Positions 26,963 to 61,651 are shown, counted from the stretch's first letter. The stretch: DNA of 64,000 bases from Frankiales bacterium (GCA_025465145.1 JAODNS010000136.1:1069-65068); one strand, 5' to 3'. Numbers and translations: made by a program. The notes: generated by a model from the letters alone, not told the origin.

Positions 26963-29900
26963 GTGGACCTGCACGTACCCGTGCACCCGGTTCGTTTCGT
27001 CACCGCCGCCAGCCTGTTCGACGGGCACGACGCGGCCATCAACATCATGCGGCGGGTGCTGCAGGCGCAGGGCGCCGAGGTGGTTCACCTCGGCCACGAC
27101 AGGAGCGTCGAGGACGTCGTCACCGCGGCCGTGCAGGAGGACGTCCAGGGCGTGGCCGTCTCCTCGTACCAGGGCGGGCACGTCGAGTACTTCAGCTACC
27201 TGGTCGAGCGGCTGTGCGAGGTCGGTGCCGGCCACGTCAGGGTGTTCGGGGGCGGCGGCGGCGTCATCGTGCCGGAGGAGATCGCGCTGCTGAAGTCCCG
27301 GGGCGTCACCATCTTCGCGCCCGAGGACGGCCAGCGGCTGGGCCTCGCCGGCATGATCAACACCCTCGTCCGCGACTGCGACGTCGACCTCGCCAGCACC
27401 GCCCCCGACCTCACGGCGCTGCGGTCCGGCGACCCGGCCGCGCTGGCCCGCGCCATCACGGTGCTGGAGGCCGGTCGCTCGCCCGAGTTCGCGGCGGCCG
27501 TGCGCGAGGGCGCGCCGCAGGTGCCGGTCCTCGGCATCACCGGCACCGGCGGCTCCGGCAAGTCTTCCCTCACCGACGAGCTGCTCCGCCGGCTGCGGCT
27601 GGACCAGGAGGACAAGCTCCGCGTCGCCGTCCTCGCCATCGACCCGACCCGCCGACGCGGCGGCGGTGCGCTCCTCGGCGACCGCATCCGGATGAACTCG
27701 CTGGCCGGCGGCCACGTGTTCTTCCGCTCCATGGCCACGCGCGGCAGCACCGCCGTGCCGGAGAACCTCGCCGACGCAATCGCGGCCTGCAAGGCGTCCG
27801 GCGTCGACCTCGTCGTCGTGGAGACGCCGGGTGTCGGCCAGGGCGATGCGACCATCGGCGACTACTGCGACGTGTCCCTGTACGTGATGACAGCGGAGTA
27901 CGGCGCGGCGTCGCAGCTCGAGAAGATCGACATGCTCGACCACGCGGACGTCATCGCCATCAACAAGTTCGAGCGACGCGGCAGCGAGGACGCCCGGCGC
28001 GACGTCGCACGCCAGGTCGTGCGCAACCGGTCCGCGTTCGGCGCGCGCTGGGAGGACATGCCGGTCTTCGGCACCAGCGCCGCGCGCTTCCACGACGACG
28101 GCGTCACCGCGCTGTACCAGCACCTGCGCGGCCTGCTGGTCGAGAAGGGGCTGCAGGTGACGGAGGGCGTGCTGCCGCCCGTGGCGACGAAGACGTCCAC
28201 CGGCCTGACCAGCGTGCTGCCGTCCTCGCGCGAGCGGTACCTCGCCGAGATCAGCGAGACCGTCCGCAGCTACCACCGCACGACCGCCGAGCAGGCGGAG
28301 AAGGCCGAGCGGCGCCAGCACCTGACGTACGCGCGCGAGGTCGTCCAGGAGGCGGCCGAGATCGACCGGCTGCTGGTCGACGTCGCCCTCGCGCCGGACG
28401 TCGAGCAGCTGCTCGCGCAGTGGCCGGCACGCGTCGAGGAGTATTCCGGCGAGGAACTCGTCTACACGGTGCGTGGCAAGGAGATCCGCACCGCGCTGCG
28501 GCGCACGACCCTGTCCGGCAGCACCGTCTCGCGGGTGTCGCTGCCCCGGCTGACCGGCCACGCCGACCTCGTGCGCCATCTGCGCAGCGAGAACCTGCCG
28601 GGCTATTTCCCTTACACAGCAGGCGTCTTCCCGTTCAAGCGCGAGGGCGAGGCCCCGGCCCGCATGTTCGCCGGCGAGGGCGACGCGTTCCGCACCAACA
28701 AGCGCTTCAAGGTGCTGTCCGGCAGCAGCCCGGCGACGCGCCTGTCGACCGCGTTCGACTCCGTCACGCTGTACGGCCGCGACCCCGACCTACGCCCCGA
28801 CATCTACGGCAAGGTTGGCACGTCCGGCGTCTCGATCGCGACGCTGGACGACATGAAGGTCCTGTACGACGGCTTCGACCTGTGCTCGCCGACCACGTCG
28901 GTGTCGATGACCATCAACGGCCCGGCGCCCGCGATCCTGGCGATGTTCCTCAACACGGCCATCGACCAGCGGCTCGCGGAGCAGCCCGACGCCGACCCGG
29001 CGGAGGTCCGTCGATGGGTGCTGTCGAACGTGCGCGGGACCGTGCAGGCCGACATCCTCAAGGAGGACCAGGGCCAGAACACGTGCATCTTCTCGACCGA
29101 GTTCGCGCTGCGTGCCATGGCCGACATCCAGCAGTGGTTCGTCGACCACGAGGTGCGCAACTTCTACTCGGTCAGCATCTCCGGCTACCACATCGCCGAG
29201 GCCGGGGCGAACCCGATCAGCCAGCTGGCCTTCACCCTGGCCAACGGGTTCACCTACGTCGAGGCCTATCTCGCGCGCGGCATGACCATCGACGACTTCG
29301 CGCCGAACCTGTCCTTCTTCTTCTCCAACGGCATGGACGCGGAGTACACCGTGCTCGGCCGGGTGGCCCGCCGCATCTGGGCCATCGCGATGCGGGACCG
29401 CTACGGCGCGTCCGAGCGCTCGCAGAAGCTGAAGTACCACGTGCAGACGTCTGGTCGTTCCCTGCACGCGCAGGAGATGGACTTCAACGACATCCGCACG
29501 ACGCTGCAGGCGCTCTGCGCGCTGTACGACAACGCCAACAGCCTGCACACCAACGCCTACGACGAGGCCGTCACGACGCCGACGACCGAGTCAGTCCGGC
29601 GAGCCCTCGCGATCCAGATGATCATCGACCAGGAGTGGGGCCTGTCGAGCAACGAGAACCCGCTGCAGGGCTCGTTCATCGCGCAGGAGCTGACCGACCT
29701 GGTCGAGGCAGCGGTGCTGGCCGAGTTCGACGCCATCGCCGCGCGCGGCGGCGTCCTCGGCGCCATGGAGACCGGCTACCAGCGCGGGCGCATCCAGGAC
29801 GAGTCGATGCTGTACGAGCACAAGAAGCACGACGGCTCGCTCCCGATCATCGGCGTCAACACCTTCCTCGCCGAGAGGACGGACGAGGAGCCGGCGACCG

Positions 29901-30133
29901 TGGAGCTCGCCCGCGCGACCGAGGCGGAGAAGCAGTCGCAGCTGGACCGGCTGCAGGCGTTCCAGGCCGCGCACGCGCACGAGGCGTCGGCGGCGCTGGA
30001 CACGCTGCGGCAGGCGGCGACCAGCGGCGGCAACGTGTTCGACGCGCTCATGGACGCCGTCCGCTGCTGCTCCCTGGGGCAGATCAGCGAGGCGTTCTTC
30101 GAGGTCGGCGGCCAGTACCGCCGGAACGTCTAG
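26963..30133 (+). CDS. icmF: fused isobutyryl-CoA mutase (B12-binding domain + MeaB-like G-protein + mutase barrel)
   Basis: ORF 26930..30133(+). Start set to GTG 26963, 5 nt after GAGGAG. HPVRFVTAASLFDGHDAAINIMRRVLQ, P-loop GITGTGGSGKSS, FPYTAGVFPFKR, STAFDSVTLYG, HTNAYDEA. About 1056 aa. Confidence 0.9.
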   Translation: MDLHVPVHPVRFVTAASLFDGHDAAINIMRRVLQAQGAEVVHLGHDRSVEDVVTAAVQEDVQGVAVSSYQGGHVEYFSYLVERLCEVGAGHVRVFGGGGGVIVPEEIALLKSRGVTIFAPEDGQRLGLAGMINTLVRDCDVDLASTAPDLTALRSGDPAALARAITVLEAGRSPEFAAAVREGAPQVPVLGITGTGGSGKSSLTDELLRRLRLDQEDKLRVAVLAIDPTRRRGGGALLGDRIRMNSLAGGHVFFRSMATRGSTAVPENLADAIAACKASGVDLVVVETPGVGQGDATIGDYCDVSLYVMTAEYGAASQLEKIDMLDHADVIAINKFERRGSEDARRDVARQVVRNRSAFGARWEDMPVFGTSAARFHDDGVTALYQHLRGLLVEKGLQVTEGVLPPVATKTSTGLTSVLPSSRERYLAEISETVRSYHRTTAEQAEKAERRQHLTYAREVVQEAAEIDRLLVDVALAPDVEQLLAQWPARVEEYSGEELVYTVRGKEIRTALRRTTLSGSTVSRVSLPRLTGHADLVRHLRSENLPGYFPYTAGVFPFKREGEAPARMFAGEGDAFRTNKRFKVLSGSSPATRLSTAFDSVTLYGRDPDLRPDIYGKVGTSGVSIATLDDMKVLYDGFDLCSPTTSVSMTINGPAPAILAMFLNTAIDQRLAEQPDADPAEVRRWVLSNVRGTVQADILKEDQGQNTCIFSTEFALRAMADIQQWFVDHEVRNFYSVSISGYHIAEAGANPISQLAFTLANGFTYVEAYLARGMTIDDFAPNLSFFFSNGMDAEYTVLGRVARRIWAIAMRDRYGASERSQKLKYHVQTSGRSLHAQEMDFNDIRTTLQALCALYDNANSLHTNAYDEAVTTPTTESVRRALAIQMIIDQEWGLSSNENPLQGSFIAQELTDLVEAAVLAEFDAIAARGGVLGAMETGYQRGRIQDESMLYEHKKHDGSLPIIGVNTFLAERTDEEPATVELARATEAEKQSQLDRLQAFQAAHAHEASAALDTLRQAATSGGNVFDALMDAVRCCSLGQISEAFFEVGGQYRRNV

Positions 30134-30656: not shown

Positions 30657-30944
30657 TCAGATCTGGACGGGGTACGTCTCGATGACGGGTGGGCCGGCCA
30701 GCAGCTCGTCGGCCCGCCCGAGCAGCTCGACGAGGTGCGGCGTGCCGAAGTGCGCGTCGAGCGCCGCCTGGTCCCGCCAGGTCTCCACGGACAGGTAGCG
30801 GTCCTCGTCCTCGAGGTCGCGAGCAAAGGCGTAGGACAGGCACCCCTCCTCGTCGCGCGAGGCGGCGGCGGCCTTGGTCAGGGCCGCCGCGATCTCCGCC
30901 CGCTTGTCGGGACGGCCGGGCAGGGTGGCGAGGACGACGAGCAC
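30657..30944 (-). CDS. antibiotic-biosynthesis-monooxygenase (ABM) domain protein
   Basis: ORF 30657..31067(-), trimmed to GTG 30944 (GGAG 5 nt upstream). VLVVLATLPGRPDKRAEI...EGCLSYAFARDLEDEDRYLSVETWRDQAALDAHFGTPH. About 95 aa. Confidence 0.7.
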   Translation of the reverse strand: MLVVLATLPGRPDKRAEIAAALTKAAAASRDEEGCLSYAFARDLEDEDRYLSVETWRDQAALDAHFGTPHLVELLGRADELLAGPPVIETYPVQI

Positions 30945-31164: not shown

Positions 31165-34100
31165 TCAGGGGCCGACGCCGCCGCGGAGCTGCGGGTACGC
31201 CAGGTCGCTGATCACACGCGCGACGCTGGCCCGGTGCCAGCGCAGGCCCTGCGGCGTGCGGAAGCCGGCCGCGTTCAGCGCGGAGGCGATCGTCGCCAGC
31301 GAGGCGCCGTTCCCGTGCATGCGGACGAGCTCATCGCGTCCGTGCTGCGGCGTCACCTCCTCGCGCCGGCGCCGACCAGCGGGGGCGGCCGCCGGGACGT
31401 CGGTGCTGACGACGAACCGCCGGTCGGGCAGGGCGGCGACGAGGTCGACGAGGTCGTCCACCAGCCGCGCCGGGCTCCACAGGAAGCCCTGTCCGGACGT
31501 GCAGCCGAGTCGGCGCAGCAGCGCGAGCTGCTCCGGCGTCTCCACCCCCTCCGCCGTGGTGCGCAGGCCGAGGGTGCGACCGAGGTCGGCGATCGCGGCC
31601 GCGATGGCGAACGCGTCCGGGTCTTCGGTGAGGGCGAGGACGAAGCTCCGGTCGATCTTCATCGTCTGCACGGGCAGCTGGTTGAGGTACGCCAGCGAGC
31701 TGTAGCCGGTGCCGAAGTCGTCGATCGCGATCGAGACGCCGTGCGCCCGCAGCCGCTCCAGCGAGGCCTTCGCCACCTCCGGGTGCGCCATCAGGGTCGT
31801 CTCGGTGACCTCCAGCACGAGCGCCTCGGGAGCGACGTTGCGGCGCGTCACCGCGGCCACCACCTGCTCCTCGAGCCGGCGCTCCCCGAGGTTCGCCGCC
31901 GTGATGTTGACGCCGATGGTCACGTCGGCACCGAGCCCGGCCCGCAACTGCGCCACGTCGGCGCAGGCGCGGTCCAGCGCCCATGCGTCCAGCGCCGGTG
32001 CCTGCCCGGTCAGCTCGGCCACCCGCACGAACCTCGAGGGTGCCACCGGACCGCGTCCGGCGTGGTCCCACCGCGCCAGCCCCTCGACACCGACGACGAC
32101 GCCGGACGTGAGGTCGACGATCGGCTGGTACTGCAGGCGGAGCGTGCCGGCTCCGAGCGCCTCGCGCAGGTCGTTGCCCAGCACGAGCCGGTCAGCGGCC
32201 GCCTCGGCGAGCTCCTGGCCGAACAGCTGCGCGCGGTTGCGCCCGCGGGCCTTCGCGTCGTACATGGCCGCGTCGGCAAACCGGACGAGGTGGTCGGGGC
32301 ACTCGGGAGGTGACATGGCGATGCCGACGCTGACGCCGACGTAGGTGGCGTGGCCGTCCACCTCACCGCGCTCTCCGACGGCCGCGATGAGCCGTTCCGC
32401 GAGGGCGAGCACCTCCGCCTCGTCGAGCCCCTCGCACACGACGACGAACTCGTCACCGCCGAAGCGGGCGACGGTGTCGGACGGTCGTACCGCTGCGGCC
32501 AGCCGGTCGGCCACGGTCTGCAGGAGCTGGTCGCCCGCCGCGTGACCCCAGGTGTCGTTGACGAGCTTGAAGTCGTCCAGGTCGAGCAGCAGGACGGCCA
32601 CCGGGGCGGAGTCCTCCGCGCCCCGCGCCAGCGCCTGGTCGAGGCGGTCCAGCAGCAGCGCGCGGTTCGGCAGTCCGGTGAGCTCGTCGTACAGCGCGCG
32701 GTGGCGGAGCTCTGCCTCGATCCGCCGTACTTCCGTCACGTCGCTGACCATGGCTAGCCAGCCGCTCCCGCCGGCGTGCTGCAGCACGCTGACGGCCACG
32801 TGCAGGCGGCGGTCCGTCCCGTCGGGGTGGCGGTAGCCGAGCTCGTGCTTGTCCGGTCCGCTGCCCGACGCACCGGTCAGGACAGCGTGTCGAAGCGTGT
32901 CCGGGTCGTCAGGCGCCAGCAGGAGCGACGGCGTCGTGTCGTCGAGCACGTCGCGCTCCACCCCGAGGATGCGCAGCAGCTCGTCGTTGGCGAAGAGCGT
33001 GCCGCCGGCGGCGTCGATCGCCCAGATCCCCTCCTGCGCGGTCGCGGCGATGTTGCGGAACCACTCCTCGGACGCCTTCAGCGCCTGCTCGGACTCGACC
33101 CGCGCGGCGATGTCGCGGCCGAGGCAGACGATGCCGCCGATGGCGGGCTCGCCGAGCCGGTTGGTGAGGACCTCCTCGTACCAGACCCAGCGCCCGTCGG
33201 CGTGCCGGATGCGCAGCTGCACAGCCTCCCGTCGCCCCGGCTCGGCGACAACCCGTTCCATGGCCGCAGCCACGGCCGGTACGTCGTCGGGGTGGGCGAA
33301 GGACCAGCCGGACCGCCCGACGACGTCCGCCACGTCGTAGCCCAGCGCCGCCGGCACCGCTGCCGACGCGTAGAGCAGCTCTCCTGCGACGTCGACGACC
33401 ACCAGCCAGTCGGAGGCGTGCGCCATCAGCGCCTCGTGGCGGTCGGTGACCGCCTGCAGTCGCTCCTCCGCGGCGCGCAGCTGCGTCAGGTCCTGCACGA
33501 AGCAGGCGATCGACTCCGGGCTGCCGTCCGCGGCGCGCACCAGCGTCGCGTTGACGAAGACGGGCAGCGCGGTCCCGTCCGGCAGCTGGAAGACGCGCTC
33601 CCACTGGTCGGTGTCGCGTCCGCCGCTGAGGAGCTCGACGCCGCGCAGCTGCCCGTGCCGCTCATCCGACGGGTGGTGCAAGTGCTCCGTGGTGCGAGCG
33701 AGCAGGTCTTCGCGGGGTCGGCCCAGCAGCTGGCACAGCGCGTCGTTGACCGCCACGCAGCGCAGGTCGAGCCCGAAGATCGCTTGCGGCAGGGCGGCCT
33801 GCTCGAACCGGGCGCGGAACCTGCGCTCGCTCGCGCCGAGCTCGGCCTCGACCGCGCGGACCCGGCTCAGGTCGGAGGACACCCCGAGAAGGCCGACGAG
33901 CTCGCCGCTGTCGTCGCGAACGGCGGAGCTGGTGACATGCACCGGGAAGACGCGCCTCGCCTTGTCGTGGACCGTCCACGCGCCGCTGTAGACCTTGCCG
34001 CCGACGAGCCGAGCCGCTTCCTCCCGGGCGGACGCGTGCCCGTCCGACGGGATGACGAGGTCGCGCAGCACGCGACCGACCGCCTCGTCGGCGCGGTAGC

Positions 34101-34257
34101 CGTACAGCTGCTCCGCTGCGGCGTTCCACAGCAGGACGACCCCGTCCAGGTCCGTGAGGACGGCCGCCTGCCCCATGCTCGCGAGGGCGGCAGCGGCGAG
34201 CGCGTCGGACAGAGCGGTGGTGTTCAGGAGGTCTCCTCGTACGGGCGGTTCGTCCAT
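31165..34257 (-). CDS. multi-PAS GGDEF-EAL c-di-GMP turnover protein with C-terminal recombinase-like HTH tail
   Basis: ORF 31165..34257(-). At least four PAS-like repeats. GGDEF domain (LTGLPNR...RFGGDEFVV). EAL domain (LQYQPIV...VEGLARW...LEVTETT...IDDFGTGYSSL...KIDRSF). 65-aa tail ELVRMHGNGASLATIASALNAAGFRTPQGLRWHRASVARVI. Confidence 0.9.
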   Translation of the reverse strand: MDEPPVRGDLLNTTALSDALAAAALASMGQAAVLTDLDGVVLLWNAAAEQLYGYRADEAVGRVLRDLVIPSDGHASAREEAARLVGGKVYSGAWTVHDKARRVFPVHVTSSAVRDDSGELVGLLGVSSDLSRVRAVEAELGASERRFRARFEQAALPQAIFGLDLRCVAVNDALCQLLGRPREDLLARTTEHLHHPSDERHGQLRGVELLSGGRDTDQWERVFQLPDGTALPVFVNATLVRAADGSPESIACFVQDLTQLRAAEERLQAVTDRHEALMAHASDWLVVVDVAGELLYASAAVPAALGYDVADVVGRSGWSFAHPDDVPAVAAAMERVVAEPGRREAVQLRIRHADGRWVWYEEVLTNRLGEPAIGGIVCLGRDIAARVESEQALKASEEWFRNIAATAQEGIWAIDAAGGTLFANDELLRILGVERDVLDDTTPSLLLAPDDPDTLRHAVLTGASGSGPDKHELGYRHPDGTDRRLHVAVSVLQHAGGSGWLAMVSDVTEVRRIEAELRHRALYDELTGLPNRALLLDRLDQALARGAEDSAPVAVLLLDLDDFKLVNDTWGHAAGDQLLQTVADRLAAAVRPSDTVARFGGDEFVVVCEGLDEAEVLALAERLIAAVGERGEVDGHATYVGVSVGIAMSPPECPDHLVRFADAAMYDAKARGRNRAQLFGQELAEAAADRLVLGNDLREALGAGTLRLQYQPIVDLTSGVVVGVEGLARWDHAGRGPVAPSRFVRVAELTGQAPALDAWALDRACADVAQLRAGLGADVTIGVNITAANLGERRLEEQVVAAVTRRNVAPEALVLEVTETTLMAHPEVAKASLERLRAHGVSIAIDDFGTGYSSLAYLNQLPVQTMKIDRSFVLALTEDPDAFAIAAAIADLGRTLGLRTTAEGVETPEQLALLRRLGCTSGQGFLWSPARLVDDLVDLVAALPDRRFVVSTDVPAAAPAGRRRREEVTPQHGRDELVRMHGNGASLATIASALNAAGFRTPQGLRWHRASVARVISDLAYPQLRGGVGP

Positions 34258-34515
34258 CGTGCACCGCTTCCGGCCGGTCCGTGGCCTTACCGATGAGTAG
34301 CTCCACGAGCAGTCCGACGGGAGTGGCCGGGGCCATCCCGGCGGCCGCGGACACGGCCCGAGGGGCTGTTCGCCTCCAGCGGAGCCGGCATCCGTCGATG
34401 CCCCCTCCGTCGGCCTCTGCCCAGCGACCGCAACGGAGCACCGCGGTGCCGTGCGCGGTCAGGTCAACGGCGGGCAGGCCGAGCGACGCCGGCGGTCGCG
34501 CCGCCGCCTGATCAG

Positions 34516-35907
34516 CTAGTCGCGCGAGGCGACCAGCCGGTCGACCGCGGCCAGCAGCAGCTCCGCGACATGGGGCGTCTCCGCCTCGAGCGCGTCGGCG
34601 AGGTACCGGGAGCCGTCCGGGAGCACCACCGCGGGCACACCACGTGCCCGCAGCAGCCGGTCCAGCCACTGCAGCAGCTCGTCCAGCAGCCGTGGGTCGC
34701 GGCACGCGTGCGCAGCCGCGGCGTGCCGCGCGATCCAGCGCAGGTCCGCGACGCTGTGCCGCTGCTGCCACGGGTTCATGCGCCGGATCCAGTCGCTGCC
34801 CTCGGCCTGCCGCTCCAGTGCCATGAGCAGCAGCGCGTCGGGAACGGCGTCCGCAAGGCGAGCCTGCTGCGGCACCTGCCCGGCGTCCGGGCGCTGGCGC
34901 AGGCCCTGCACCAGGTCGGCGAGGCCGCCCGCGCTCGCGGCCCAGGCGTCCGCGCCGAGGGCCAGCGCACGTGCGTCGTCGGTGCCGAACGCGCGGCCGC
35001 CTGCCACCACGGGCACCCCGACCTCGTGTGCGGCGGCGATGGTGTCCGCGGCCGCGATGAGGCTCGTGGCGATCGTGCAGGAGAGCGCGAGGGCGGCCGG
35101 CCGCGCCTCCTCGAGGTAGCGGCCCAGGTGCTCGGCCGGAACGCCTGGGCCGAGGACGACGGCGCGTACGCCCCCGGCTGCCACGGCGGCGAGCCGGCCG
35201 GGCAGCGTGTGCCACTCCTCCGCCGGCGCGGCGAAGACGACGACCGGGCCCGTTGTGGGCAGCGGCAGGGACGCTGCGGCAGCCTCCGTCAGCGACGTCG
35301 CCGCGTGCTCGTCGGCAACCGACCAGCGGCCGGCGTACCAGCGCTCGCCGACCTCGCGCTGCGCCGGGGCGAGCACGTGCTCGGCCACCGACTCGGCCCG
35401 CACACCGGACAGCAGCAGCCGCCGGACGACCGCGGCGGTGGCGTTGCCGTCGCCGGCCGCAAGGGCGTCGACGTAGCGCCCGAGCGCCTCCGGCTCCGCG
35501 TTGCGGGTGCCCGCCGCCATGGGGGCGGACGCGGGCAGGCGGTGCAGCGCGAGGCGGGCGTCCTCGACCAGCTGCGGCAGGACGGCGCGCAGCTCGAGGG
35601 TGGCCACGCTGAGCGGGTCGGCGACGACGAGCACGGGCTCGGACAGGCCCAGCGAGACGTCGACGCCGAGCACGTCGTCCGGCTCGAGCCGGGCTGGTAC
35701 GCAGGCCCCGCCGAGGTCCGCGACCGCGGTGCGGACCACGGCGGCGACGTCGTCGGCCGTGGACGTCCGCAGGAGCGCCCGGGTGGCGGCGAGGGCCACC
35801 TGCGCGGCGCCGTCGGGGCAGAGCGGGTACGGCCGCTCGGTCGGGCGCTGCCGGCGGCCCGCACGCCGGCCGGCCTGCGACGCGGGACCGAGCTCGGGCG
35901 CGGTCAT
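34516..35907 (-). CDS. cobalamin (B12)-binding domain protein, CarH-like sensor module without DNA-binding domain
   Basis: ORF 34516..35934(-), trimmed to ATG 35905-35907, which overlaps the upstream stop (ATGA). Four-helix-bundle signature YVDALAAGDGNATAA...VGERWYAGRWSVADEHAAT (W-x9-EH). Rossmann part VVFAAPAEEWHTLPGRL...LALSCT...VPVVAGGRAFG. N- and C-terminal extra domains are unassigned. Confidence 0.7.
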   Translation of the reverse strand: MTAPELGPASQAGRRAGRRQRPTERPYPLCPDGAAQVALAATRALLRTSTADDVAAVVRTAVADLGGACVPARLEPDDVLGVDVSLGLSEPVLVVADPLSVATLELRAVLPQLVEDARLALHRLPASAPMAAGTRNAEPEALGRYVDALAAGDGNATAAVVRRLLLSGVRAESVAEHVLAPAQREVGERWYAGRWSVADEHAATSLTEAAAASLPLPTTGPVVVFAAPAEEWHTLPGRLAAVAAGGVRAVVLGPGVPAEHLGRYLEEARPAALALSCTIATSLIAAADTIAAAHEVGVPVVAGGRAFGTDDARALALGADAWAASAGGLADLVQGLRQRPDAGQVPQQARLADAVPDALLLMALERQAEGSDWIRRMNPWQQRHSVADLRWIARHAAAAHACRDPRLLDELLQWLDRLLRARGVPAVVLPDGSRYLADALEAETPHVAELLLAAVDRLVASRD

Positions 35908-38165
35908 GCCGTGGCCGAGCTCGCCGCGAGGCACCGGCCGACGGTGTGCGCGTGCCAGCGGCGGCCCTCAGGGTTCAGGGCGCCCTCGCCGTTGAGGACG
36001 GCGGCGATCGTGTGTGTGCTCGCGCCGTGCCCGTACATCTGGTGCATGCGCGCCAGCACAGCACGGTCCACGGCAGGACGGCCGCGTCGAGGACGAAGCG
36101 GCTGCGGCTCCAGCGGTCGTTCGGTGCCCGCAAGCGCTGCCGCCAGCTCGTCCGCTGGCACCGGCCGGGCGAACAGGTAGCCCTGCGCATCCGTGCAGCC
36201 GAGCTGCACCAGCCGATGGCGCTGCGCTTCGGTCTCCACGCCTTCGGCTATCAGGCCGAGTCCGACGTCGCGACCGAGGCGGACGACGCTCGCGACGATC
36301 GCCGCGTCGTCCGGGCTCTCCAGCATCCCGGCCACGAACGAGCGGTCGATCTTGAGCAGGTCCACCGGGAACCGCTTGAGGTACAGGAAGCTCGAGTACC
36401 CGGTGCCGAAGTCGTCGATCGCCGTACGGACGCCCAGCTCCTTCAGCGCCGTCATCGCGCGAAGGGCGGCCTCCGCGTCCTCGACCACGGCGCTCTCGGT
36501 CACCTCGAGCACGAGCCGGTCGGCGGCGAGGCCGCTGCGTCGAAGGCTCGCCTCCACCGTCGCGACAACGTCGGGCTGAGCAAGCTGCCGGGTCGAGAGG
36601 TTGACGGCGACCGTGAGCGCAGCCGCGTTCCCGCTCCACGACGCCGCCTCGGCGCAGGCCTTGTCGAGGACGGCAGCCCCCATCGGGACGATGAGCCCGA
36701 CCCGCTCCGCGACCTCGATGAACTCTCCGGGTGAGACCAGTCGGCCGTCACGGTCCCGTACGCGCACCAGCGCCTCGACGCCCGTCGGGCGTCCGGTCGC
36801 CAGCTGCACCACCGGTTGGTAGTGCACCTCCAGGCGGTCGTCCTCGAGCGCCTCCTCGACCAGCCGCTCGACACGGCGGCGGCGGTCCATCTGGGCGCGC
36901 AGCTCGGTCGACGCCATGTCGAGGCGCGCGCCGCCGTGGCTCTTCGCGGCATACATCGCCTCGTCCGCCGCCCGCAGCAGCTCCTCGGCCGTCGTCTCCG
37001 CCGTGCCGACGGCGAGGCCGGCGCTGGCCGTTACGGGCACCTCGCGACCCTCGATCTCGACGGTGCCGTTGACGGCGGCGACGACGCGCTCGCTGCGGGT
37101 GCGCGCCCCGGCCTCCGAGGTGTCCACCCACACGACGACGAACTCGTCGCCGGAGACACGCGCGACCGTGTCCGTCGCCCGGCTGACCCGGAGCAGGCGG
37201 TGCGACAGCTCGACGAGAACACGGTCGCCGGCGGCGTGCCCGAGGGTGTCGTTGACGCCCTTGAACCGGTCCACGTCGAGGAACAGCGCCGCCACGACGC
37301 CGCCGGAACGGGCGGTGTGCACGAACGCCTGGTCCATCCGGTCGAGCAGCAGCGTCCGGTTGGGCAGGCCGGTGAGGCCGTCGTGCAGCGCGGCCCTGCG
37401 CAGCTCCTGCTGGGCGCGCTTCATCGCGGTCACGTCGACGGTCATCACCACGGCGCCGGTTTCGGCGGGGAGCGGTGTGATGCGGATGCTCCACCACACG
37501 TCGTCCGGCGCCTCGTACTCCAGCTCGAACCGCGGCCGCCGGCCCTCCAGCACGTCGCGCAGGCCGATCAGCAGCAGCTGTGCCTCTGCCTCCGGCGACT
37601 CCCCGCGCCACAGGACCGACAAGTCGTCGCCTGGCTCGCAGGTCAGCAAGGAGCCTTCGCTCTGGTGCCGCATCGGCTTGTTCACGGCCAGCACCCGGCC
37701 AGCGCCGTCGACGGCGCAGGTCGGCGCCTCGAGACCGTCCAGCAGCGCCGCCGAGAGCCGCGCGGCGCGGCGTGCTGCCGCATCGGCGCGGGCGCGCTCG
37801 CAGGCGTAGCGCAGCGCCCGCAGCACCAGCTGCGGCGTCAGCTCGGATTTGCTCACGTAGTCCTGCGCGCCGCTCGCGAGGGCGTCGAGCGCCATCGTCT
37901 CGTCCTCGAGCCCGGTCAGGACGACCAGCGGCAGCTCGGGGTACGCGGCGCGCAGCGTCTCCACGACGTCGAGGCCCCAGGCGTCCGGCAGGGACAGGTC
38001 GACGAGCGCCACGTCCCACGGCGCTGCGGAGAGGGCGGTCAGTGCGCCGCTGAGGCTCGGCGCGTGCTCGACCAGCACGGGCACCCGCCCCTCCTCGAGC
38101 AGGGCGGTGACGAGGTCCGCGTCCGCGAGGCTGTCCTCGACGAGCAGCACGCGCAGTCCCGTCAT
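35904..38165 (-). CDS. REC-PAS-GGDEF-EAL response regulator with C-terminal recombinase-like HTH tail
   Basis: ORF 35904..39377(-), trimmed to ATG 38163-38165 (MTGLRVLLVEDS...). Canonical receiver (DVALVDLSLPD, VVLTG, YVSKS). GGDEF domain (VSGDEFVVV). EAL domain (GVEALVRV...EVTES...IDDFGTGYSSF...KIDRSF). Tail LARMHQMYGHGASTHTIAAVLNGEGALNPEGRRWHAHTV. Confidence 0.9.
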   Translation of the reverse strand: MTGLRVLLVEDSLADADLVTALLEEGRVPVLVEHAPSLSGALTALSAAPWDVALVDLSLPDAWGLDVVETLRAAYPELPLVVLTGLEDETMALDALASGAQDYVSKSELTPQLVLRALRYACERARADAAARRAARLSAALLDGLEAPTCAVDGAGRVLAVNKPMRHQSEGSLLTCEPGDDLSVLWRGESPEAEAQLLLIGLRDVLEGRRPRFELEYEAPDDVWWSIRITPLPAETGAVVMTVDVTAMKRAQQELRRAALHDGLTGLPNRTLLLDRMDQAFVHTARSGGVVAALFLDVDRFKGVNDTLGHAAGDRVLVELSHRLLRVSRATDTVARVSGDEFVVVWVDTSEAGARTRSERVVAAVNGTVEIEGREVPVTASAGLAVGTAETTAEELLRAADEAMYAAKSHGGARLDMASTELRAQMDRRRRVERLVEEALEDDRLEVHYQPVVQLATGRPTGVEALVRVRDRDGRLVSPGEFIEVAERVGLIVPMGAAVLDKACAEAASWSGNAAALTVAVNLSTRQLAQPDVVATVEASLRRSGLAADRLVLEVTESAVVEDAEAALRAMTALKELGVRTAIDDFGTGYSSFLYLKRFPVDLLKIDRSFVAGMLESPDDAAIVASVVRLGRDVGLGLIAEGVETEAQRHRLVQLGCTDAQGYLFARPVPADELAAALAGTERPLEPQPLRPRRGRPAVDRAVLARMHQMYGHGASTHTIAAVLNGEGALNPEGRRWHAHTVGRCLAASSATA

Positions 38166-38327
38166 CGTGCCTCCCTTCGTGCGGCTGGATGCCCACCCTG
38201 ACCGGCCGCCGGCCCCCTCGCCAGCGGTTCGGCCGCGAAGGGTGCGCAGACGGCACATGCGCCCCCCGGTCGCACTAGTTCCTGGGGACCGGGCCTGCCG
38301 ACGCCGCGCCTCGGGCAGGATGCCCGG

Positions 38328-39482
38328 GTGTCCGCCACCACCACCACCACCGCCGCCGACCTGCTGGCGCAGGCCGCTCAGGTGGCTGCCGACGCAATTG
38401 TCGGCGAGGACGTGGACGGTGTGGTGATGGCCTGGAACGACGCCGCCTCCCGGCTCTACGGCCTGGCTGCGCGCGATGCCGTCGGCAGCAGCGCCGAACC
38501 GCTGCTGCGGCCGGACGGCGAGTCCTCGGCTCCGGCCGCGGCACGCGCTCGTGCGCTGACGGGCACGCGGGTCGATGCGTTCGACAGCTGGCACGCCCGG
38601 GCCGACGGCAGCCGCGTTCCCGTCTCGACCTCGGTCGCGCCGCTGCGGCGGCCCGACGGGAGCGTCTGCGGGACGGCCACCAGCGCGATCGACATCAGCG
38701 GACGCCTCCGCCTCGACGCCGACCTGCAGGACGCGCGCCGGGCGCTGGAGCAGCAGAACGCGGTGCTGGTCCGGAGCAACCGCGACCTGGAGCAGTTCGC
38801 CTATGTCGCCTCGCACGACCTGTCCGAGCCGCTGCGGGTGATCACCGGCTTCATCACGCAGATCGAGCGCCGGTACGGGGGCAGCTTCGACGAGCGCGGC
38901 GAGCGGTACCTGCGGCACATCGTCGAGGGGGCCGCGCGGATGCGGGCGCTCATCGACGACCTGTTGGAGTACTCCCGGTTCCTGCGCGCGGACCACACCC
39001 GTACCGAGGTGCCGCTGCGGGAGGTCGTGGACGCGGCGCTCGGCCGGCTGTCCGCGGCCGTGCAGGACACGGGCGCAGAGGTCGAGGTCGGGGAGCTGCC
39101 CGTCGTCCTCGGCGATCGCGCGCAGCTGCAGAGCATGGTCCAGAACCTGCTGTCCAACGCGCTGAAGTTCACCGCGCCGGGGGAGGTCCCGCGGCTGCGG
39201 GTGAGCGGCGACGTCGCTGGCGCCTCCGGAGTGCTGCACGTGGACGACGCCGGGATCGGGATCGAGCCGGAGTTCCGCGACCGGGTGTTCCGGATGTTCC
39301 AGCGCCTGCACGTACGCGAGGACTACAGCGGCACCGGGATCGGCCTGGCCGTCGTCCAGCAGGTGGTCGAGCTGCACGACGGCAGCATCACCGTCGAAGA
39401 CTCACCGCTCGGAGGCGCGCGCTTCCGGGTCGCCCTCCCGCTGGCAACGACCGGAGGTGGCCCGCGTGGCGACGACCGCTGA
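38328..39482 (+). CDS. PAS sensor histidine kinase (HisKA of the phytochrome-associated type)
   Basis: ORF 38328..39482(+). PAS block [16 protein letters not shown]-box [23 protein letters not shown] box LLSNALKF, G boxes DDAGIGI and GTGIGLAVV. Confidence 0.9.
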
Positions 39483-39906
39483 CCTGCTGCAGATCCTGCT
39501 CGTCGAGGACAGCCTGCCCGACATCGAGCTCACCCTCGAGGCGCTCGAGGCCGCGAAGGTGGCGAACCAGGTGCACGTGGTGCGCGACGGTGAGTCCGCG
39601 CTCGACTACCTGCACCGCCGGGGCAAGCATGCCGACGCGACCCGGCCGGACCTGGTCATCCTCGACCTCAACCTGCCCCGCCGCAGCGGCCAGGAGGTGC
39701 TCGCCGACGTGAAGGCGGACGCGGACCTGCGCCGCATCCCCATCGCCGTGCTGACGACCTCGGCCGCGCAGGCAGACGTGGTGCGGTCCTACGACCTCGG
39801 TGCGAACTGCTACCTCACCAAGCCGGTCGACGTGGAGCAGTTCCTCAACGTCGTGCAGTCGATCGAGGACTTCTGGCTCGGGCTGGTCCGCCTGCCGCCT
39901 CCGTGA
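39457..39906 (+). CDS. single-domain response regulator (Rcp1/CheY-like)
   Basis: ORF 39457..39906(+). [10 protein letters not shown]...[14 protein letters not shown]...VLTTS...NCYLTKP with all phosphorylation residues present. Overlaps the kinase 3' end; an alternative GTG start is at 39466. Confidence 0.9.
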
Positions 39907-61578: not shown

Positions 61579-61651
61579 GCGCCGCTAGCTCAATTGGCAG
61601 AGCAGCGGACTCTTAATCCGCGGGTTCGGGGTTCGAGTCCCTGGCGGCGCA
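61579..61651 (+). tRNA. tRNA-Lys (anticodon CTT)
   Basis: Folded by hand. Acceptor GCGCCGC/GCGGCGC, D arm GCTC-AATTGGCA-GAGC, anticodon arm GCGGA-CTCTTAA-TCCGC, variable GGGTT, T arm CGGGG-TTCGAGT-CCCTG, discriminator A. CCA is not encoded. Confidence 0.93.

Follow-up and report, generated by a model that had tools for sequence, protein, structure and literature searches.

A photocobilin with a conserved N-terminal domain, encoded in overlap with a GGDEF-EAL enzyme in a Frankiales bacterium, as a likely light input to c-di-GMP signalling

How does a cobalamin-type light sensor that has no output domain of its own reach its target? The question is posed by a 64,000-nucleotide (nt) stretch of DNA from a Frankiales bacterium (GCA_025465145.1 JAODNS010000136.1:1069-65068; the whole stretch is hereafter called the window), in which the gene for such a sensor overlaps the gene for a REC-PAS-GGDEF-EAL enzyme of cyclic di-GMP (c-di-GMP) metabolism. 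We conclude that the sensor is almost certainly a photocobilin (Pcob in the architectures below), that is, B12-binding domains plus a photoglobin, and not a truncated CarH. It bears a conserved N-terminal domain of ~100 residues, which we name Ndom. We favor, at a probability of roughly 0.6, a role for it as an adenosylcobalamin (AdoCbl)/bilin light sensor that acts through Ndom to control the c-di-GMP enzyme translated with it. The gene pair and the domains of the sensor map as follows.

34516..35907, minus strand: Ndom-photocobilin sensor gene, 463 amino acids (aa) (Pfam, PDB sequence matches, AlphaFold2, Foldseek)
35533..35820, minus strand: Ndom, aa ~30-125 (alignment A3, AlphaFold2 prediction of the domain alone)
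35275..35478, minus strand: B12-binding_2 four-helix bundle, aa 144-211 (Pfam PF02607, E 4.9e-14)
34945..35241, minus strand: Rossmann-type B12-binding domain, aa 223-321 (Pfam PF02310, E 8.9e-8)
34522..34875, minus strand: photoglobin (bilin-binding) domain, aa ~345-462 (residue alignment to 8J2W and 8J2Y)
35904..38165, minus strand: REC-PAS-GGDEF-EAL gene, 753 aa, with a recombinase-like helix-turn-helix (HTH) tail (Pfam)

Photocobilins carry a CarH-like cobalamin-binding module and, C-terminal to it, a globin-like photoglobin; both AdoCbl and biliverdin are bound, the latter by the photoglobin (Zhang et al. 2024, PMC10979010). Responsiveness to green and red light is a further mark of the class. 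The structures from the 2024 study, 8J2Y, 8J2W and 8J2X, were the best PDB sequence matches of the sensor by phmmer (E 5.5e-40 to 3.6e-37), covering about residues 146–454; CarH-type entries ranked lower, at E ~1e-14, with alignments that ended near residue 330. Predicted alone with AlphaFold2 (AF2) from 40 homologues, the sensor adopted a confident photocobilin fold, with a predicted local distance difference test score (pLDDT) of 92 and a predicted template modeling score (pTM) of 0.85. Foldseek matched this model to the photocobilin structures at a template modeling score (TM) of 0.85–0.86 (E 1e-18), and it superposed on 8J2W and 8J2Y with a root-mean-square deviation of 2.6–3.2 Å over ~330 residues, in keeping with a C-terminal five-helix photoglobin packed against both B12 subdomains. 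The CarH cobalamin-binding domains were matched at E 1e-8, with ~200 residues covered.

Two family names were tried and rejected. The CarH/LitR model NF052513 scored 54.8 bits against a cut-off of 400, over the cobalamin-binding part only, and the sensor has no MerR HTH and a Tyr at residue 191. The automatic name given by the Joint Genome Institute (JGI) is 'methanogenic corrinoid protein MtbC1'; the MtbC1/MtgC corrinoid carrier model NF047996 scored 22.6 bits against a cut-off of 370, and no methyltransferase genes were found in the 21-kb annotated context of the sensor gene. The initial annotation of this locus, which had spoken of a CarH-like B12 sensor, was right to see a cobalamin-type light sensor that lacks a DNA-binding domain (Pfam found no HTH family, MerR included, at E<=0.1), but the protein is a photocobilin and not a truncated CarH. 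The ~120 C-terminal residues left unassigned there are the photoglobin, according to the alignment to 8J2Y/8J2W and to Foldseek, and the ~140 unassigned N-terminal residues contain Ndom.

The chromophore sites are well preserved. The four-helix bundle carries G187-x-x-W190 and W190-x9-E200-H201 (WYAGRWSVADEH), which cap the adenosyl group, and the Rossmann domain carries E231-x-H233, with the lower axial His, and G253-x3-P257. The motifs first read in the protein (W-x9-EH, EEWHTLPG, which holds H233, LALSCT and VVAGGRAFG) are all there, and both B12-binding profiles, PF02607 (52.7 bits against a cut-off of 23) and PF02310, match. Nine residues, G187, W190, E200, H201, H233, G253, P257, D404 and W414, are invariant in 40 of 40 homologues; residue 231 varies only between Glu (38 homologues) and Asp (2). 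In the photoglobin, D388 aligns with Asp270 of SasPcob and W414 with its Trp296 (by the offset derived from the 8J2W/8J2Y alignment), and D388, the bilin-binding Asp, is kept in 35 of the 40. The published signatures of photoactive cobalamin-binding domains are GxxW, EH, the His ligand, GxxxP and GxxH (PMC11796333), and the sensor has every one except the Gly of GxxH. We infer that it binds AdoCbl in the base-off/His-on form under the W-x9-EH cap; its photoglobin probably holds biliverdin.

One difference from CarH concerns the light state. Residue 191, next to W190, is Tyr as in SasPcob, where CarH has His, and His is not among the commonest residues at this position in the 40 homologues. We take His132 of TtCarH, next to the capping Trp, to be the bis-His residue, as the titles of the H132A PDB entries also indicate. 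Since the CarH light state is bis-His (PMC10979010) and residue 191 is Tyr instead of His, no such state is expected in the sensor. About 20 homologues of 457–465 aa, 48–62% identical to it, keep all motifs in all three domains together with the N-terminal extension. There are also shorter photocobilins, of ~335 aa, that lack the extension.

Ndom lies in this extension. Its conserved motifs are ATRALL, DLGG, D-x-S-x-G-x-x-EP and DAR, and its predicted fold, alpha-alpha-beta-beta-beta followed by a long C-terminal helix, was the same in the full model and in the domain modeled alone (AF2, pLDDT 87). Attempts to assign it to a known family gave little. Fifteen Ndom sequences had no Pfam match at E<=10, neither to GAF nor to DICT, a family raised in the initial annotation and not found in the whole sensor at E<=0.1 either; the Ndom region had no NCBIfam match; a profile search of the PDB returned noise only; and a Foldseek search of viral structures returned nothing. 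The best Foldseek neighbor in the PDB was the KdpD GAF domain, a weak match (E 0.5, TM 0.44); Ndom has three predicted strands. In a profile search covering 1.84 billion representative proteins, the Ndom family comprised 517 representative clusters at E<1e-3, of which 364 reached E<1e-10. The window itself has a single Ndom: there is no second Ndom gene and no MerR-Ndom gene.

The sensor open reading frame spans 34516..35934 on the minus strand. We take the start to be the ATG at 35907, giving 463 aa, in agreement with the gene call on both of two JGI metagenome contigs that are identical copies of the window locus, and with the N-termini of all homologues. With this start the stop of the REC-PAS-GGDEF-EAL gene overlaps the sensor ATG as ATGA ('...ggcATGAccg...'), as had been noted. 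The nearest genome is a Mycobacteriales metagenome-assembled genome (MAG), whose sensor homologue is 59% identical. The source is accordingly an uncultured actinobacterium. GC content around the sensor gene is 72–74%.

Linkage to c-di-GMP genes was examined in 84 loci from genomes and metagenomes, retrieved by their photocobilin part, a set spanning Mycobacteriales, Frankiales, Nocardioidaceae, Acidimicrobiales, Nitriliruptorales and Dormibacteria MAGs. A GGDEF or EAL domain was encoded within 1.5 kb in 22 of 31 photocobilin loci with Ndom vs only 1 of 53 without it (Fisher p 4e-12). The REC-PAS-GGDEF-EAL/Ndom-Pcob pair with its 4-nt overlap recurs in three other loci (L004, L006 and L007), whose sensors are 55–59% identical to that of the window, and a GGDEF-EAL gene lies directly upstream of the Ndom-Pcob gene in three more (L009, L010 and L028). 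Of the neighborhood, it is the upstream enzyme alone that is conserved in relatives.

Other features were seen at these loci. In L006:4195-5397 a divergent 400-aa protein with a PilZ domain, a c-di-GMP receptor, adjoins the overlapping pair. In L003:9412-10587 and L004:9421-10575 the next gene after the Ndom-photocobilin gene is moeA (molybdopterin molybdenumtransferase). L003 (JGI Ga0604931_0001674) comes from the same metagenome sample as the window contig; its Ndom-Pcob gene, P0013, is 57% identical and has a different context, with SpoIIE, PucR-like, lone GGDEF and MerR genes nearby. P0013 is either a paralogue or from a related organism.

Ndom is found with several kinds of output. Pfam domains were tallied on 146 of the 150 best-scoring Ndom proteins, those new relative to the first search: GGDEF was present on 56, MerR HTH on 21 and EAL on 15, with smaller numbers for B12-binding domains (7–8), HisKA/HATPase (6–8), HTH_17 (5) and ANTAR (2). 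An ABM domain was seen on 2 of the 146. One architecture is an Ndom-GGDEF protein of ~300 aa. This unit is fused to a photocobilin as Ndom-GGDEF-Pcob in P0037, P0039 and P0064, and in twelve other loci a separate Pcob gene lies within ~0–25 nt of the end of the Ndom-GGDEF gene. Longer fusions have the form REC-PAS-GGDEF-EAL-Ndom-GGDEF (P0097, L018), EAL-Ndom-GGDEF (P0103, P0110) and PAS-GAF-Ndom-GGDEF (P0137), and P0091 is MerR-Ndom. In P0184, 1594 aa encoded by a single gene on a 200-kb contig, the order is 5xPAS-GGDEF-EAL-Ndom-B12-binding-photoglobin; this protein is a covalent fusion of the two gene kinds that overlap in the window. The contigs of P0112 and P0145 are too short to show neighbors.

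The association was also approached from the opposite side, by retrieving 80 metagenome loci with the Ndom peptide pattern alone (alignment A5). Enough downstream DNA was available for 61, and in 58 of these a Pcob core was fused to Ndom or lay immediately downstream. The 58 comprised 26 with MerR-Ndom and Pcob, 18 with Ndom-GGDEF and Pcob, 9 with Ndom-GGDEF-Pcob, 2 with Ndom-Pcob, and 3 in which Ndom, cut by the contig start, preceded Pcob. Ndom, then, almost always accompanies a photocobilin, and output domains attach to Ndom. In the first group (L096-L129 and others) a MerR-HTH-Ndom gene of ~240–270 aa is followed by a separate photocobilin gene of ~340 aa, the Pcob core starting at a median of ~125 nt past the Ndom end; such a pair with called genes is at L087:1985-4061. 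The arrangement resembles CarH, a single-chain light-dependent repressor, divided over two proteins: a 'split CarH'.

Three further signaling genes flank the overlapping pair in the window.

31165..34257, minus strand: 4xPAS-GGDEF-EAL gene, 1030 aa, with the same HTH-like tail (Pfam)
38328..39482, plus strand: PAS-HisKA-HATPase histidine kinase, divergent (Pfam)
39457..39906, plus strand: REC-only single-domain response regulator of RcpA/Rcp1 type, divergent (Pfam, PDB matches)

The first of these is the second multi-PAS GGDEF-EAL gene of the initial annotation, downstream of the sensor gene on the same strand and separated from it by a 258-nt gap; in its product the GGDEF with RxxD, the EGL and the remaining EAL motifs are all intact. 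For the kinase core, the best match was to bacteriophytochrome kinase modules (E 1e-39), and the protein has a PAS domain only, with no GAF/PHY chromophore module. The regulator matches RcpA (E 6e-41) and Rcp1 (E 9e-38) in the PDB. Calling the two 'phytochrome-type' and 'Rcp1-like' was fair as a statement of similarity. Conservation of these neighbors is another matter: L004 and L007 lack a GGDEF-EAL gene downstream of the sensor gene, so adjacency of the second gene is not conserved, and among the other loci just two, L016 and L023, have a homologous kinase-regulator pair close to the sensor gene. The second GGDEF-EAL gene, the kinase and the regulator are absent from the neighborhood in most relatives, and their adjacency is mostly specific to the window genome.

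Both GGDEF-EAL proteins of the window end in a ~50-residue tail resembling a recombinase-type HTH (35904..36140 and 31165..31450, both on the minus strand), with Pfam matches to Recombinase at E 0.034 and 6e-4 and to HTH_62 at E 9e-4. The same tail was seen on GGDEF-EAL genes upstream of photocobilin genes in L004, L006, L007, L009, L019, L028 and L029, and in P0145 an Ndom follows it immediately. It would be unusual for enzymes of c-di-GMP metabolism to end in a DNA-binding tail.

The second GGDEF-EAL gene is closely followed by a gene for a 95-aa ABM-family monooxygenase (30657..30944, minus strand). The catalytic pattern of IsdG/MhuD is Asn/Trp/His. By eye the ABM protein lacks this pattern, and a role as a heme-degrading source of bilin is unlikely. 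Farther on, at ~26963..30133 on the plus strand and followed by a MarR regulator, the window encodes an IcmF-like fused AdoCbl-dependent mutase of 1056 aa (B12-binding, MeaB and MM_CoA_mutase). An Rfam scan of the window found no cobalamin or other riboswitch, its sole match being a tRNA at 61579..61651 (plus strand), and no sigma-70 promoters or intrinsic terminators were found between 30.9 and 40 kb in a scan that has low power at 73% GC.

Output to c-di-GMP through protein contact, as originally proposed, is most likely in view of the conserved overlapping gene pair and the fusion proteins, and the REC-PAS-GGDEF-EAL product is the likely primary target; the 31165..34257 product is a possible second one. 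We envisage that the sensor would form a head-to-tail dimer in the dark. Green light, or red light via the bilin, would cleave the Co–C bond, and the dimer would be broken or rearranged. The change would be relayed via Ndom to the REC-PAS-GGDEF-EAL protein, whose translation from the shared mRNA would be coupled to that of the sensor, and c-di-GMP synthesis would gain or lose relative to hydrolysis. This enzyme's REC domain keeps the usual acidic residues and would add phosphorylation as a second input, for which the divergent PAS kinase is a plausible candidate phospho-donor. As to how the relay works, we rate the chances as about even that Ndom is a dedicated transmitter domain, one that would dock on the B12/photoglobin bundle and pass the light state to the attached output.

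Several observations speak against light control of the overlapping enzyme. In the sensor, E230, beside the cobalt-ligating H233, replaces the Gly of GxxH, a Gly in 37 of 40 relatives, and the PF02310 match, at 32.4 bits, is barely over its cut-off of 32.1. E230 could alter cobalamin affinity or specificity, and with the marginal Rossmann score it could mean that B12 binding is weakened. The 21 kb of annotated sequence around the sensor gene shows no heme oxygenase that could supply bilin. The upstream enzyme has SGDEF in place of GGDEF, its RxxD I-site and all EAL catalytic motifs being intact; it may therefore have a weak cyclase half, and it may be chiefly the phosphodiesterase that is controlled. 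Contact of Ndom with Pcob or with EAL is deduced from gene context. The p-value of the linkage comparison is overstated, since related genomes were counted as independent with no correction for phylogeny. Finally, six Ndom-Pcob loci (L003, L005, L011, L027, L031 and L056) have no directly adjacent GGDEF/EAL gene, and because several relatives are of this kind the c-di-GMP partner is not fixed.

These six loci would also fit a sensor that acts on a partner encoded elsewhere, be it a transcription factor, an anti-sigma/STAS protein or a kinase-regulator pair, with adjacency reflecting co-expression only. So would the two relatives in which moeA is directly downstream instead, the STAS, SpoIIE and PP2C partners predicted for the standalone SasPcob (PMC10979010), and the pairing of Ndom with MerR, HTH_17, ANTAR and kinase domains. 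Co-expression alone does not readily explain why four loci with sensors only 55–62% identical retain the 4-nt stop/start overlap with GGDEF-EAL, or why EAL-Ndom-GGDEF and PAS-GGDEF-EAL-Ndom-Pcob exist as covalent fusions; it also has to contend with the enrichment of 22/31 against 1/53 and with a 64-kb window that holds no other Ndom or MerR-Ndom gene to serve as partner. We consider an elsewhere-encoded partner rather unlikely. The signal, and not the target, is at issue if the sensor reports cobalamin availability or redox state to c-di-GMP signaling in the manner of AerR/PpaA. E230 could change the form of cobalamin bound, and the IcmF-like mutase, encoded ~5 kb from the sensor gene, indicates that the organism uses AdoCbl metabolically. 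Against this stand the photoactive-domain signatures, complete but for the Gly of GxxH, the photoglobin with its bilin-binding Asp and Trp retained, and the fact that the closest characterized proteins are photoreceptors, and we hold a cobalamin-status sensor to be distinctly improbable.

Least credible, to the point of being very remote, is a sensor that is no sensor at all, either a corrinoid carrier for methyltransferases or the decayed remnant of an Ndom-GGDEF-Pcob fusion that has lost its cyclase. The carrier idea follows the automatic MtbC1 name; it meets an MtgC score of 22.6 bits where 370 is the cut-off, a lack of methyltransferase genes nearby, and a W-x9-EH motif that is a feature of photoreceptors. 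Deleting GGDEF from fusions such as P0037, P0039 and P0064 would indeed give the architecture seen in the window, but motif conservation across three domains in the ~20 full-length homologues argues for purifying selection. We retain a light sensor acting through Ndom on the co-translated enzyme as the preferred explanation.

Published biochemistry of photocobilins supports this explanation. Light converts SasPcob from dimer to monomer, and in AbDPcob the turnover of the fused cyclase increases more than 10-fold on illumination; photocobilin domains in isolation, the standalone SasPcob among them, alter the activity of a separated cyclase in a concentration-dependent manner (all PMC10979010). 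The same study called the function of standalone photocobilins unclear and probably exerted via protein-protein contacts. SasPcob (Saccharothrix syringae; 8J2W dark, 8J2X light) shares with the window protein the order and packing of four-helix bundle, Rossmann domain and photoglobin (TM 0.85, 34% identity), the W-x9-EH and E-x-H motifs, the bilin Asp and Trp, and the lack of a His beside the capping Trp. Neither has an output domain of its own, and in vitro SasPcob affects a cyclase supplied in trans. The window protein differs in its ~135 extra N-terminal residues, which include Ndom, and in E230, where relatives have Gly. The loci differ too: among short loci of the SasPcob type, GGDEF/EAL neighbors occur in 1 of 53 and the predicted partners are STAS/SpoIIE.

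AbDPcob (Acidimicrobiaceae, HAS09818; 8J2Y is its sensor part) is the best sequence match (E 5.5e-40) and has a c-di-GMP output. Its cyclase is in the same polypeptide, N-terminal to the sensor, whereas the window sensor has no GGDEF and is paired with a separate REC-PAS-GGDEF-EAL enzyme; and AbDPcob/AbPcob has His at the bilin Asp position, with poor biliverdin binding, where the window protein has Asp. The nearest full-length relatives of AbDPcob, P0272, P0274, P0037 and P0039, start with an Ndom homologous to that of the window, and the closest match to AbDPcob in the protein collection searched was 82% identical. Going by these relatives, the published 'DGC domain' (diguanylate cyclase) of AbDPcob may include part of Ndom.

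CarH/LitR (5C8D and related entries) has in common with the window protein the cobalamin module with W-x9-EH and E-x-H, and AdoCbl Co–C photolysis with light-driven loss of oligomers would be expected of both. The window protein has no MerR HTH, has Tyr191 for His, and has a photoglobin and Ndom in addition; its predicted output is by protein contact, unlike the operator binding of CarH. AerR-type proteins, which we compare by description only, presumably lack photoglobin and Ndom and act on a transcription factor, not on c-di-GMP enzymes. The likeness is that AerR/PpaA, the co-regulators of CrtJ/PpsR (see PMC9144470), bind B12, have no DNA-binding domain and work through contact with another regulator.

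The initial annotation regarded a cobalamin sensor wired to c-di-GMP as an undescribed mode. That wiring is already published. Schneider et al. 2022 (PMC8717448) defined the photoglobin and, from genomics, predicted loci of this kind as photoglobin/B12 operons with two-component, GGDEF and EAL/HD-GYP genes and sometimes ABM monooxygenase and heme oxygenase genes; the light-activated cyclase followed in PMC10979010. No equivalent of Ndom and no rule for the choice of output appear in the passages of PMC8717448 searched. As far as term searches of PMC8717448 and PMC10979010 go, four things seem not to have been described in the photoglobin/photocobilin literature: the existence of Ndom as a domain in its own right, the near-obligate company it keeps with photocobilins, the pairing of an Ndom-Pcob fusion with a bifunctional GGDEF-EAL enzyme, and the 'split CarH' of MerR-Ndom and Pcob.

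Ndom offers a concrete, testable answer to how photocobilins choose their targets. If our reading is true, it would be a modular family through which one type of sensor serves several outputs, namely Ndom-GGDEF cyclases, GGDEF-EAL enzymes, MerR repressors, and ANTAR, HTH_17 and kinase proteins. The MerR-Ndom and Pcob pairs hint at a CarH light switch that in nature is built from two proteins, and a portable pair of sensor and adaptor would be of interest for green- and red-light optogenetic tools. The window's Ndom-Pcob and its coupled REC-PAS-GGDEF-EAL enzyme would then be a light- and phosphorylation-gated c-di-GMP switch, suggesting that uncultured soil-type actinobacteria use light to control bifunctional c-di-GMP enzymes.

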